From: a virus
Strand: one strand, 5' to 3'
UHGV virus genome: UHGV-0079480
DNA length: 23,636 nt
Positions 18,001-21,000 of this stretch are shown here, piece by piece. The position numbers are program-made. The stretch's first letter is position 1, and every line of letters starts with the position of its first letter.

Positions 18001-21000
18001 TGCCTTACGGGTACAACGTTTTCTTCCTGCTTGGTCACACAGCCGAAGGTGTGGCAGCGGGTGACCTGACGGCGTCCCGTGCTGCCGGTAATGTTGTTGG
18101 TGGTGTGCTTGGTGCATTCAGCCCGATTGGCAGTGAGACGTCGGAAACACTGTCCGGGGCATTGCTGAAAAATGCAGCGCCGACCATTCTGCGTCCGTTT
18201 GCGAACCTTGCCATGAATGAAAACTTCATGGGGGCGCAGATTTACCAGGAGAACATGCCGTTTGGTACACCAAAACCTGACAGCCAGCTGGGAAGACGTT
18301 CAACGCCAGAAGCGTACAAGGCGTTTGCATCCTGGCTGAATGCGTTCTCTGGTGGCAGCCAGTACCGTCCCGGCGCGGTGGATATCACACCGGAATCGCT
18401 GAAATACTGGGTGGACTATATCTCCGGAGGGACAGGGCGCTTCATTTCTAAAACCACGGATGCGGCGGTGAAATCGCTGAATGGTATTGATATACCGGAG
18501 CAGCAGGTGCCCTTCCTGGGGAAAATTTCAGGTGAGGTGATGCCGTATGCTGACCAGCAGAAGATGTACGATCGGATGACAGAGGTTGCGCAGTATCACG
18601 CAGAGCTGAAGAGTCTGACCGGTGCAGAAAGAACGGCGTTCATTGACGAGAACAACGGAAAATTGTCGATGAACGGGCTTATGCAGGATACCCGGAAGAG
18701 ACTGAAGGATTTGCGTAAACAGCGTGATGCTATTTACGCCGACAGTACTCTCAGTCTGGCGCAACAGTCGGCGATGGTGAAATCGGTAGAGCGGGATATG
18801 AAAATTGCCGTGGATCGGTTTAACCGCGAGTACAACAAAAAAGTGGGAGTGGATTAACAGAAATGGCCCCGTACGGAAGTGCGGGGCTGATTAAGAAATA
18901 AACACTCATTGACCTGTAATAACCGGAGCTATTAACATATAGTCAGAAAGAGCATTTCATGTGATACAGAGAGCCGATTTATGTTTAATGAAAGAATTCA
19001 GGCCCACGATGATATCGATGAGGAGTTTTTTCAGCCAGTATTGGATGGCTTTTTTATATCCAAATATACGCCATTTGACATCCTCCACGCCCTGAAGGAC
19101 GGGGTTTTACAGCGCACCGGATAAGATTCGGTGCTTTGTTGAAAAAAACTGTGATAACAAACAGAAAACCCGTCAGTAAGACGGGCTTAACAAGCAGGAA
19201 CAGTTACTTTAATAATTTCAGTGCCTTTACATCCACTTCAACACTGGTAAAGTCTTTATCAATTTCCCCTTCAATTCTTACTTTGTCTTTCGGAGAAACA
19301 TTCTGACCGGCCCATATGCTGTCATCGATATCCGTGACAATTGTCCCGCTATTGTCACGAAACTCATAACGTTCATCACCCACTTTTTTAACGATGCTCC
19401 CTTCAAGGATAACCCATGCATCATCCTTCAGTTCTTTTGCCTGCGCTACTGTTGAACGCTCTGCTTCAGGCCCTTGGAAACCGCCCTGCTGTGCAAAAAC
19501 GCCAAAAGACACACCGGAAATAAGTGCTGCAATCAATACCTTTTTCATTCATAGTCCTCTTTCAGAGATGAACATTCAAACAGCATTTTCAGTATGGTAA
19601 AGTGCGGGTGCGTTGAGGATGCCTGACACATCAGAGGTGGCGAGGGATTTCTCCCTCGCCGGGTCTCTTACTTCTCAGATTCGTAAGCTGTGAAGACAGC
19701 GACCTCCGTCTGGCCGGTTCGGATTCGTACCTCGCAGAGGTCTTTCCTCGTTACCAGTGCCGTCACAACAACGGTAATACAGATGACGATCAGGGCGATT
19801 AACATCGCCTTTTGCTGCTTCATAGCCTGCTTCTCCTTGCCTTTCGGCGCGTAAGAGGCTAACCTACATGTGTCTAGCATGAAATTGGCCTCAGATTAAT
19901 GTTAAGCGTCCTGCAAGACGCGAAATGTTAACTGGGGCTTTTCTCTGTCTGCCTTACGGCGGCATGCCCGAGGCAGACAGCCTCAAGCACCCGCAGCAAT
20001 TCTACTTAACTCTTCTTTCCCCGCAAACCGTTTTTATCCCCAGCGGCAAATCGAATACACCATCAGCGCTACCGCCATTGCAATACCAACATTTGAGAAG
20101 GCTTCAGGCTGGCTCATTGGCGTACCTCCTTCGGCGGTTCTGGCAGCGGCATCCAGTGGGTTACCTCTTTGAGATACAGGTCTTCGCCATCACCGTCATC
20201 CCAAGTGGGATTGCCATCATTAAACCAGTCGCCATATACGCCTACCTGAGTGTTGGGAATGTTTGGCGTGTAGGTGTTTTTAAAGTCAGCCGCTAACACA
20301 TAGCATTGTCGCTCTCCCATTTTTGGCATTCGCTCACTACAGCTTATCCAACCATCCGGAGTTACCAGAGAGTTGCCCGATAGCTCGTTCAACTTGTAAG
20401 TTTGGCTTACGAGTTCGGCTTCCAGTTCTGCTATGCGCTTCTCTGATGCTTCAAGTAACGCCTGCTTATCGCGTAGCGCTTCTTCCAGTTCAGCAACATG
20501 GCATTCACTATCAATAAGGTTGTTCTCTGCTGCTCCCAGCTCAACTCTCAGCTTCCCAACCGTAAGAGCAATTTCCTCGTTCTCCTGGTCGCGGCGTTTG
20601 ATGTATTGCTGGTTTCTTTCCCGTTCATCCAGCAGTGCCAGCACAACCTGAGGTGTGACTTTCATACGAAATGCCAGCAATTTTTGAGGCGTTGCTACTG
20701 TTTCAATTGCTACTGCCGCCTCACGCAGTGCCTGATAGTCAATCTTGCTCATTTTTCTCTTCACTCCGGTATACAAGGATTACTACGCCCCCTCTGCTAA
20801 TTGCGCGAGCTGGATCCCCTGGTTCCATGCCGTCAATCCCGAAGGCTTCGAAAAATGCATCTATTGCCTTTTGGCGTTGCTCCTGCTTACGGCGTTTATT
20901 CCATTTTTTCATGAACAACAGTGACAGCCATCGTCCGCTGCAGAACATGATGTAGAAATAACCAAGGAGCGCCAGGCCGGTGTTCAGGGCTGTATCGATC

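Follow-up and report, generated by a model that had tools for sequence, protein, structure and literature searches.

In a stretch of viral DNA of 23,636 nucleotides (UHGV virus genome UHGV-0079480; hereafter the window), a short minus-strand reading frame for a Hok-like toxin carries a 19-codon in-frame extension at its 5′ end. This raises the question of whether the locus is a complete hok/mok/sok type I toxin–antitoxin module, whether the extension is mok although it shares the frame of the toxin, and where the antisense RNA lies. An initial annotation of the window had recognized the toxin and the extension and had been unable to delimit the antitoxin RNA.

Identity of the locus

The hok frame at 19668–19823 (minus strand, 51 codons plus stop) matched Pfam HOK_GEF (PF01848) with 81.9 bits (E = 2.3e-23, cut-off 22) and PHROG 251, 'MokW-like host killing', with E = 4.6e-32. 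On the hok-sense strand, positions 19818–19992 matched the full Rfam model RF01794 (1–157; 119.5 bits, E = 4.5e-27, gathering score 59). Together these matches exclude a chance open reading frame. The Rfam 'sok' match in the window is on the strand of the toxin and describes the leader. The Hok protein is 92% identical to HokW (47/51 residues) and to HokD, 88% to HokC and 43% to R1 Hok, which bears out the HokC/HokD type given by the initial annotation. One database entry carries exactly this protein (EOJ9878603.1, 'type I toxin-antitoxin system Hok family toxin [Escherichia coli]').

A 501-nt query spanning the locus was 92% identical to 933W, VT2-Sakai and many other Stx phages and 96% identical to phiSTEC1589-Stx1c. 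Phage records covering at least 80% of this query numbered 67, at 92–96% identity, and an Stx1c phage covered 91% of the whole window at 96.5%. None of the complete E. coli genomes in the collection exceeded 97% identity over the 501 nt. The neighbouring genes are arranged as in 933W: upstream lies a DUF551/Ead-like gene, and downstream a YgiW-like BOF gene followed by a gene for a giant LPD protein. Judged by position and nucleotide identity, the locus belongs to the orthologue group of the 933W-like (Traversvirus) Stx phages. We consider it very probable that the region is an intact hok/mok/sok type I toxin–antitoxin module, an allele of the hokW/mokW/sokW of 933W-like Shiga-toxin phages. 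Such a module is already known, having been annotated and tested in the Shiga-toxin phages 933W and Sp5, and the feature is in that respect ordinary.

The window also contains a second Hok-like frame at 5472–5612, which matched HOK_GEF with 33.2 bits (cut-off 22) and is only 33% identical to the main Hok, so that the claim of two different hok loci in one prophage stands. Its earlier label as HokA/E-like is loosely justified: the frame is a real Hok-like one, but it reached 38.4 bits against the NCBIfam HokA model, whose cut-off is 89. The leader of this second locus gave a sub-threshold match of 36.4 bits (E = 1.2e-6). The same second locus was found in 933W, VT2-Sakai (Sp5) and about 200 phage records; by this comparison, carrying two hok loci is not special to the prophage in the window. 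A bioRxiv paper on Pas sRNAs contained nothing bearing on the sRNA-Xcc1 matches.

Reading frames of hok and mok

From an ATG at 19880, the mok frame runs for 70 codons plus stop (19668–19880, minus strand), passes through the internal hok ATG at 19823 in the same frame and ends at the common stop codon; its 70-aa product reads MLDTCRLASYAPKGKEKQA followed by MKQQKAMLIALIVICITVVVTALVTRKDLCEVRIRTGQTEVAVFTAYESEK. The start is preceded by a Shine–Dalgarno sequence, GAGG (19889–19892, minus), 8 nt upstream (GAGG-N8-ATG, 19892–19878), and the hok start by AAGGAG (19833–19838, minus), 9 nt upstream and within an invariant block of the alignment. A GAGG-N8/9-ATG spacing is kept in loci from Escherichia, Kluyvera, Pseudocitrobacter, Photorhabdus and plasmids. 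GenBank/RefSeq annotate the same extension as mok in two reference loci: mokW of 933W, 213 nt, shares its stop with hokW, and mokC of K-12, 210 nt, shares its stop with hokC, 153 nt. The extended frame of the initial annotation is thereby confirmed.

The suggestion that 70 codons is the classical mok size agrees with R1 in length but not in frame. In R1 the mok start codon is A116–G118 and the hok start A174–G176, an out-of-frame offset of 58 nt, and mutants are numbered T117/G118 (mok), G176 (hok) and Y48N at T315 (Le Rhun et al. 2022). We took the R1 offset from this published numbering rather than from the R1-type plasmid in our collection, whose Hok is 100% identical to that of R1 and whose mok is in frame. 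The window has an in-frame offset of 57 nt, and so have mokC and mokW. The same in-frame offset occurred in 57 of the 73 phage-borne loci that could be scored, and in-frame mok was likewise found in hokC, in Photorhabdus and in that one R1-type plasmid. Among homologues the frame varied freely, with offsets of 56, 57 or 58 nt. With 56 nt, mok is a frame of 19 codons ending in an ATGA stop/start overlap; with 58 nt, it is an out-of-frame frame of 68–70 codons. The R1-type, out-of-frame mok is thus not what the sequence of the window holds, but membership in the family is unaffected because all three offsets occur among its members. This variation fits the view that translation of mok matters and the Mok peptide does not. 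The general point of the survey is that mok and hok have no fixed frame relation.

Putative promoter and predicted folds of the mRNA

We infer a weak hok/mok promoter from TTTGCG (−35, 20027–20022) and TAGAAT (−10, 20004–19999) with a 17-nt spacer (19999–20027, minus). Both hexamers are identical in 933W, and the position corresponds to TATGAT-N6-GGCGCUUGAGG in the R1-type plasmid. A strict scan for sigma-70 promoters and terminators over 19400–20200 returned nothing, and the promoters of the locus were assigned by hand and by homology; that the scan misses both indicates that the Sok promoter is only moderately consensus-like, and for a weak hok promoter a miss is expected. The full-length mRNA would comprise about 393 nt (19600–19992, minus), its 5′ end placed at GGGUGCUUGAGG, at 19992, where the Rfam model also begins, and its 3′ end set just past fbi. 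No intrinsic terminator was found between fbi and the downstream BOF gene (19548–19204), the first being at 19188–19166.

The predicted full-length mRNA folds with a minimum free energy (MFE) of −167.8 kcal/mol (z = −8.08 against shuffles) and with its 5′ and 3′ ends paired. The translational activator element, tac (GGGUGCUUGAGG, 19981–19992, minus), forms 12 bp with the fold-back inhibition element, fbi (CCUCAACGCACCC, 19606–19618, minus), with one bulged C (19992–19981 with 19618–19606). Next to tac, a 5′ hairpin (CUGUCUGCCU ... AGGCAGACAG, 19945–19980, minus) is present in all folds. In the full-length fold, the ucb, or anti-SD, box (AAGCCCCAG, 19932–19940, minus) pairs with CUGAGGC at the mok Shine–Dalgarno sequence, whereas its partner in the truncated fold is tac; these predicted pairings match the closed and open conformations described for R1. 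Near the 3′ end, AUGUGUCAGGCAU (19619–19631, minus) pairs with the mok start region AUGCUAGACACAU (19880–19868) in the full-length fold, 12 of 13 positions being paired in the MFE structure. Correspondingly, hok mRNA reportedly pairs at its 3′ end with the mok translation initiation region.

The truncated fold contains the tac/ucb pairing and a pairing of the dcb box AGCCUC (19855–19860, minus; overlapping the Sok −10 on the other strand), in which GCCUC pairs with GAGGC at the mok Shine–Dalgarno sequence. It exposes a YUNR-type loop in the mok-start hairpin, CUAGACA (19871–19877, minus), which starts with CUAG where 933W has CUGA. We presume from this fold that the loop would be the first contact for the 5′ tail of Sok. 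A role of the YUNR U-turn is said to be established for hok/Sok. The 3′ hairpin GGCGAGGGA-GAAA-UCCCUCGCC (19639–19660, minus) is presumed to be the protective end of the processed, truncated mRNA; in R1, toxicity is lost when mutations weaken the hairpin that comes last in the truncated mRNA (Le Rhun et al. 2022). A further hairpin, GCGUC-N6-GACGC (19906–19921, minus), sits at the tip of the Sok/target stem as a 16-nt insertion relative to the Rfam consensus. It is common to the window, 933W and full-length hokD loci, and absent in hokC, Photorhabdus and plasmid hok.

AGCCUC (19860–19855) was first read as ucb, with an 11-bp pairing of tac to AGCCUC plus GCGCC. When forced, this fold was about 7 kcal/mol worse than the MFE; the pairing was 87% paired across loci, with one column of UA/UG/CG variation. 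In R1, ucb is placed upstream of the mok Shine–Dalgarno sequence, at AGCCCC (Le Rhun et al. 2022), and on this ground we relabelled AGCCUC as dcb and claim no tac/GCGCC pairing.

The predicted Sok antisense RNA

On the plus strand, a promoter for Sok is placed at 19837–19865 (−35 TTGCCT, 19837–19842; 17-nt spacer; −10 TAACCT, 19860–19865), with hexamers identical in 933W. A promoter-less sokW construct, in which primer YO-421 replaced AGGTTA (the complement of TAACCT), lost protection (Takada et al. 2021). Mapped from the sokW misc_RNA of AF125520, Sok would be a 71-nt RNA at 19872–19942 (plus). The initial annotation had the strand right and guessed about 19880–19950; homology to sokW shifts the RNA 8 nt further left. 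The predicted RNA folds with −26.5 kcal/mol (z = −4.38); its first 15 nt stay single-stranded, as a 5′ tail with complementarity to the mok start and loop, and are followed by a long hairpin and a UUUU(CUCU) end. In Sp5 lysogens, a 71-nt sokW RNA was detected by northern blot (Takada et al. 2021). As a predicted RNA, 19872–19942 is a cis-encoded Sok overlapping the mok start. For the window, the gain is chiefly one of annotation: the locus can carry the hok/mok/sok label with exact coordinates, and the plus-strand antitoxin RNA, missed by gene callers, can be placed.

Conservation of the structure

Related loci were searched with a narrow Hok alignment as seed, and pairs were counted in 34 homologous loci from Escherichia, Kluyvera, Pseudocitrobacter, Photorhabdus, Pantoea and related enterobacteria. 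The structure derived from the window was paired in 87% of cells against 37–43% for slid controls, with 154 double-change cells against 33–63, a contrast that is inflated because the reference structure was taken from the window itself. The tac/fbi helix was 93% paired, with compensatory changes of UA to or from CG in seven loci, AU to or from GC in two and GC to or from AU in one. The 5′ hairpin was 93.5% paired, and three of its pairs showed double changes, including G–C in the window versus A–U in 933W; the 3′ hairpin (19639–19660) also showed compensatory changes, relative to 933W and to other loci. The tac/ucb helix was 99.6% paired but invariant, and the complementarities ucb/mok-SD, tac/ucb and mok-SD/dcb were kept in 33–34 of the 34 loci; as the tac/ucb and mok-SD/dcb columns do not vary, covariation neither supports nor contradicts these pairings. 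Taken as predicted, the elements of the hok/sok family are present at this locus: a Hok frame, a structured leader, mok with its Shine–Dalgarno sequence, tac/fbi, the alternative pairings, Sok and a YUNR loop.

Proposed mechanism and biological role

By homology to R1, we infer that hok expression at this locus depends on mok translation, 3′ processing and a structural switch. The product of the weak promoter would be a stable mRNA about 390 nt long (minus strand, 19992 to about 19600), closed by tac/fbi pairing, with ucb over the mok Shine–Dalgarno sequence and the 3′ end over the mok start, and inaccessible to both ribosomes and Sok. Slow 3′ trimming to the hairpin at 19660–19639 would remove fbi, upon which tac would pair with ucb and expose the mok ribosome site and the YUNR loop. 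During normal phage transcription, the short, unstable Sok would use its free 5′ tail to pair with the mok start, blocking mok translation and marking the duplex for RNase III. Once Sok is lost, ribosomes would initiate at the ATG of mok (19880) and traverse the hok ribosome site, allowing hok to be translated, and Hok, a small membrane peptide, would damage the inner membrane. Since mok is in frame with hok, ribosomes starting at 19880 would yield a Hok of 70 aa with an N-terminal extension. In R1, toxicity is abolished when the mok start codon is mutated or when a premature stop interrupts mok upstream of hok (Le Rhun et al. 2022), and 3′ processing of hok mRNA has been shown only there. For the 92%-identical hokW-sokW, hokW is toxic, sokW protects and is lost after prophage induction, RNase III and Hfq are only partly required, and the module gives a twofold gain in phage release (Takada et al. 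2021).

The 70-codon frame could itself encode a functional longer toxin isoform, a Mok–Hok fusion whose 19 N-terminal residues matter beyond translational coupling. Initiation at 19880 must, after all, give the extended protein, and the in-frame state is that of most phage-borne loci as well as of hokC, Photorhabdus and even an R1-type plasmid. Yet the mok–hok offset differs between close relatives, and in hokC a 1-nt deletion together with a 1-nt insertion changes the peptide from LASYVPKG to VPLTDRKV while the nucleotides stay conserved. Moreover, those mok residues that are conserved fall on RNA elements (the dcb box, the promoter of Sok and the Shine–Dalgarno sequence of hok), and R1 needs no Mok product but only translation as far as the hok start (Le Rhun et al. 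2022). We regard such an isoform as very unlikely. Even less probable in our judgement is a silent relic, complete in sequence but unexpressed or non-toxic like several chromosomal hok loci. Decay is common in the family: K-12 hokD keeps only positions 214–455 of the 501-nt query, with relBE replacing the leader, K-12 hokC lacks fbi and lies beside IS186, several genome loci (L049, L050, L060, L061) are frameshifted, and many phage records name the homologue 'RelF inactive antibacterial toxin protein'. Two relatives stand closest, phiSTEC1589-Stx1c and E. coli 2013C-3033, and their mok ATG is ATA, the same change (G118A) that abolishes R1 toxicity, which indicates that the lineage is not uniformly under selection. 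The decay that the initial annotation had named as counter-evidence is thus partly seen in these relatives but not in the window, where promoter hexamers equal to those of functional hokW-sokW, tac, ucb, dcb, fbi, both Shine–Dalgarno sequences, both ATGs and a full-length Hok are intact. The helix differences from 933W are compensatory, and the 92%-identical hokW is toxic and regulated. The ATA allele is also rare: of 5426 complete E. coli genomes, about 6 carry it at ≥99% identity, and it was found in none of 80 viral contigs.

The most likely role of the module is to help lysis and phage release on induction, prophage maintenance being the older proposal. That the module serves mainly maintenance through post-segregational killing, or abortive infection against other phages, seems unlikely to us. 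The original 933W annotation does read 'prophage maintenance', and R1 hok/sok stabilizes plasmids and reduces T4 plating, but mis-segregation does not remove an integrated prophage, and Sp5 without hokW-sokW leaves normal growth unaffected while induced lysis comes about 40 min later and phage yield is halved (Takada et al. 2021). The homologous module of Sp5 thus speeds host lysis and doubles phage release after induction. Since the locus belongs to Shiga-toxin-converting phages, a role in lysis would bear on phage spread and probably on toxin spread.

Gene order suggests a further, doubtful possibility, namely that HokW-type killing is armed by prophage excision through genome topology, as with lambda sib. 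On the 933W prophage map, attL, int, xis and the early left operon stand at one end and hokW, L0139–L0142 and attR at the other, all on the same strand, and the genes upstream of hok in the window are co-oriented as in 933W. Excision joins attL and attR, so that leftward transcription from pL could run via int across attP and L0142–L0139 into hok, sense for hok and head-on against the Sok promoter; no convincing terminator was found ahead of hok in the window. Such read-through could silence the short-lived Sok by transcriptional interference and add hok/mok RNA. If true, it would account for two observations that Takada et al. left unexplained, namely that sokW RNA disappears in a RecA-dependent manner and that HokW appears.

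Comparison with known hok/sok loci

The nearest well-described counterpart is the hokW locus of 933W (AF125520) and of Sakai prophage 5 / VT2-Sakai, which lies in the same position between the DUF551/Ead-like and YgiW-like BOF genes. In the 933W locus mok is likewise an in-frame stretch of 70 codons and the antisense RNA spans the same 71 nt; its annotations can be carried over nucleotide by nucleotide. The promoter hexamers are identical, as are tac, ucb, dcb and fbi, and the extra GCGUC/GACGC hairpin is shared. The two loci differ by about 40 substitutions, of which many fall in stems and are compensatory, and by four conservative changes in Hok relative to HokW (L16I, I19V, V45T and D46A). 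Six differences fall in the first 20 nt of Sok and its target and could limit cross-talk between co-resident loci.

Full-length hokD (relF-type) of Qin-like lambdoid prophages is similarly close, with 92% identity in Hok and up to 95.5% nucleotide identity in the mRNA, and like the window it has the extra leader hairpin, an in-frame mok and a DUF551 gene upstream. In hokD loci a CCCGC-TTCG-GCGGG-T-run terminator follows directly after fbi, whereas the window runs on into the BOF gene. The sequence of the locus resembles a mosaic in which hokW-type and hokD-type segments are combined. In K-12, hokD itself is without the leader and without the mok and Sok parts. In K-12 hokC/mokC/sokC (gef), with 88% Hok identity, the same in-frame 19-codon extension is annotated as mokC, and sokC, on the other strand, shares 9 nt with the mokC start. 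It differs in that hokC has no extra leader hairpin, its mok peptide is internally frame-shifted relative to mokW, and the K-12 copy is without fbi beside IS186.

The hok/mok/sok (parB) system of plasmid R1 resembles the predicted module of the window in the tac/fbi closed form, the tac/ucb open form, a Sok directed against the mok start, the mok-dependent translation of hok, 19 mok codons upstream of hok and a mok of 70 codons. It differs in its Hok, which is 43% identical, in a mok that starts 58 nt upstream and out of frame, and in being plasmid-borne with a role in post-segregational killing.

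Identification of the hok/mok/sok locus

The minus strand carries a 70-codon ORF (19668-19880) whose last 51 codons, starting at the ATG at 19823, encode the Hok/Gef peptide MKQQKAMLIALIVICITVVVTALVTRKDLCEVRIRTGQTEVAVFTAYESEK. This is the Hok that the initial annotation had placed at 19668-19823, with an in-frame ATG at 19880, and it matched Pfam HOK_GEF (E=2.3e-23), PHROG 251 'MokW-like host killing' (E=4.6e-32) and, end to end, the Rfam covariance model RF01794 (119.5 bits, 19818-19992). Judged by these matches, assignment to the Hok/Gef family is secure. Peptide identity is 92% to HokW, 92% to HokD and 88% to HokC, bearing out the proposed closeness to HokC/HokD, and 43% to the Hok of plasmid R1. 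The exact protein is recorded once (EOJ9878603.1).

A 501-nt query around the locus matched 101 phage records, with 92% nucleotide identity to Stx phage 933W, VT2-Sakai (Sp5) and many other Stx phages and 96% to phiSTEC1589-Stx1c. An Stx1c phage covers 91% of the whole window at 96.5%. None of the complete E. coli genomes in the collection exceeded 97% identity over the 501 nt. The 933W record (AF125520) annotates mokW (213 nt), hokW (156 nt, same stop) and, on the opposite strand, a sokW misc_RNA (71 nt). Base-for-base transfer places mok at 19880-19668 (minus), hok at 19823-19668 (minus) and Sok at 19872-19942 (plus), mapping the antisense RNA expected on the plus strand near 19880-19950. 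The neighbours are also as in 933W: a DUF551/Ead-like gene lies upstream, and downstream come the YgiW-like BOF gene and then the gene for a giant polyvalent LPD protein. A 2808-aa ORF (10431-18857, plus) with LPD5, LPD1, MuF_C and LPD38 domains encodes a large polyvalent protein homologous to 933W L0134. The allele itself looks mosaic, with hokW-like and hokD-like segments. The feature is a system already known and experimentally characterized; the initial observation was correct and its interpretation is supported.

Reading frame of mok

Which frame mok uses had been left open. Both mokW and mokC are annotated in frame with hok, while R1 mok is out of frame. K-12 mokC (16751-16960) and hokC (16751-16903) end at a common stop with a 57-nt difference in length, which makes mokC an extension of hokC by 19 in-frame codons, and mokW is annotated likewise in 933W; sokC overlaps the mokC start by 9 nt. 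In the R1 mutant numbering of Le Rhun et al., mok starts at A116-G118 (T117C/G, G118T/A) and hok at A174-G176 (G176T; T315A = Y48N), an offset of 58 nt that puts R1 mok out of frame. R1 mok thus begins 19 codons ahead of hok and totals 70 codons, but out of frame, whereas mok of the window is in frame.

In surveyed loci from Escherichia, Kluyvera, Pseudocitrobacter, Photorhabdus and plasmids, GAGG always lies 8-9 nt ahead of the mok ATG, and the mok and hok ATGs are 56, 57 or 58 nt apart. Of 80 IMG/VR loci surveyed in the hokD/hokW lineage, 73 were scorable for the offset. The offset was 57 nt in 57/73, giving a 70-codon in-frame ORF; 56 nt in 11/73, where the ORF has 19 codons and its TGA and the hok ATG overlap in ATGA; and 58 nt in 4/73, giving a 68-codon out-of-frame ORF. 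The remaining locus (1/73) was truncated. In-frame mok also occurs in an R1-type plasmid whose Hok is 100% identical. The Mok peptide of hokC is shifted by a 1-nt deletion together with a 1-nt insertion, although the nucleotide sequence is conserved. The variable offsets and this peptide shift fit the view published for R1, that what matters is mok translation as far as the start of hok, not the Mok product (Le Rhun et al.).

Sok RNA and structure of the hok mRNA

A candidate Sok promoter on the plus strand (TTGCCT, 19837-19842; 17 nt; TAACCT, 19860-19865) precedes the mapped Sok start at 19872. Its -35 and -10 hexamers are those of 933W, and Takada et al. replaced the -10 hexamer (primer YO-421) in their promoter-less sokW construct. 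In the predicted fold of the 71-nt Sok (-26.5 kcal/mol, z=-4.38), the first 15 nt form a free 5' tail, followed by a long hairpin and a U-run. The tail is complementary to the mok start and its loop, and the hairpin tip bears the GCGUC/GACGC extension characteristic of hokD/hokW-lineage loci. The Rfam 'sok' match (RF01794) is a different object: it covers 175 nt of the hok-sense strand (19818-19992, minus) up to the start of hok, and therefore describes the leader containing the Sok target. The 157-nt model likewise represents the sense-oriented leader of hok mRNA as far as the hok AUG. A pipeline annotating from RF01794 would thus assign 'sok' to the incorrect strand, with more than double its proper length.

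The mRNA 5' end was taken as 19992, where the Rfam model begins and which lies 7 nt downstream of TAGAAT, and the RNA was folded to 19600. The predicted fold of this 393-nt minus-strand RNA (19992-19600; -167.8 kcal/mol, z=-8.08) carries features described for the closed R1 mRNA. The 5' element tac (19992-19981) pairs with the 3' element fbi (19618-19606), the ucb box GCCCCAG (within 19940-19932) with CUGAGGC of the mok Shine-Dalgarno (SD) region, and the mok start AUGCUAGACACAU with AUGUGUCAGGCAU (19631-19619), beside fbi. Trimming to the 3' hairpin (19660-19639) changes the predicted fold: tac now pairs with ucb and the mok SD with the dcb box (GCCUC, 19859-19855), and the mok start lies within a hairpin whose loop, CUAGACA, opens with a YUNR motif.

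In a 34-locus alignment, the closed structure was kept in 87% of cells (37-43% in slid controls), with 154 double-change cells (33-63 in slid controls), a contrast somewhat inflated because the tested structure came from the window. The tac/fbi helix was 93% paired, with UA<->CG exchanges. The tac/ucb and SD/dcb pairings were conserved with invariant columns, and differences between the window and 933W within stems are compensatory.

Flanks of the locus

No intrinsic terminator was found between fbi and the BOF gene (19548-19606, minus), whereas in hokD-type loci a terminator directly follows fbi. The first terminator-like hairpin on this strand (19188-19166) comes after the BOF gene (19548-19204), and in hokW-type phages a single transcript may span hok and the BOF gene. 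In 933W, ~3 kb separate hokW from attR, and the gene points the same way as int and the early left operon, which lie at attL. Given this gene order, pL transcription after excision would cross attP and enter hok against the Sok promoter. We infer that such read-through could account for the disappearance of sokW on induction.

A 27-codon hydrophobic ORF, MSQPEAFSNVGIAMAVALMVYSICRWG (20034-20117, minus), lies immediately ahead of the putative hok promoter and overlaps the Ead/DUF551 stop as ATGA. In a hokD locus (L005, 1367-1471), the corresponding position is annotated with a 34-aa hydrophobic ORF that differs from it; neither ORF had a family match. Further upstream, inside or between ORFs on the strand of the early-left-type genes, are two minus-strand matches to Rfam sRNA-Xcc1 (RF02221; 21952-22037 and 22488-22572; 74.5 and 53.0 bits, gathering score 53).

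A second hok locus

The initial annotation had also proposed two differing hok loci in the prophage, and this held: the second Hok-like ORF (5472-5612, plus; 46 aa) scores 33.2 bits against a Pfam cut-off of 22 and is only 33% identical to the first Hok. Its leader gives a sub-threshold Rfam match (E=1.2e-6), and a tac-like GGGUGCC at the 5' end (5324) has a matching GGCACCC downstream near 5672. By its sequence, this is a genuine hok locus. An ATG is missing from its mok position, where GAGGCCCTAATCATCATACCTTAA lacks a start codon and meets a stop after three codons. The locus is 97.7% identical in 933W (L0129 region), where it is not annotated as hok, and also occurs in Sp5 and about 200 phage records, so two hok loci per genome are the normal state of this phage group. 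It lies with an AT-rich spacer in a moron-like block within the structural gene region (4506-7175, plus), between an Ail/Lom-family outer-membrane protein (4506-5240, plus) and a YadA-like trimeric autotransporter with YadA head and anchor domains (5964-7175, plus).

Integrity and comparison with characterized loci

A decayed relic had been named as the reading that would overturn the annotation; the window retains the mok ATG and all other elements. Its two closest relatives, phiSTEC1589-Stx1c (L002, 2671-2673) and E. coli 2013C-3033 (L006, 3171-3173), have ATA instead of the mok ATG. The same change in R1 (G118A) abolishes toxicity (Le Rhun et al.), and by analogy these copies may be translationally silent. 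The ATA allele is rare (about 6/5426 genomes). In phiSTEC1589, the hok ORF bears the erroneous label 'tail fiber protein'.

We consider it very likely that the window locus is an intact hok/mok/sok module, unlike K-12 hokD, which is without a leader, and K-12 hokC, which has lost fbi beside IS186. With less confidence, we take it as a probable working allele with the same role as Sp5 hokW-sokW because of the results of Takada et al. on that 92% identical locus. There, HokW arrested growth and sokW expressed from its own promoter was protective, with RNase III and Hfq partly needed. After mitomycin C, sokW RNA disappeared and HokW was found in the inner membrane, in a RecA-dependent manner, and deletion of the locus delayed lysis by ~40 min and halved phage yield.
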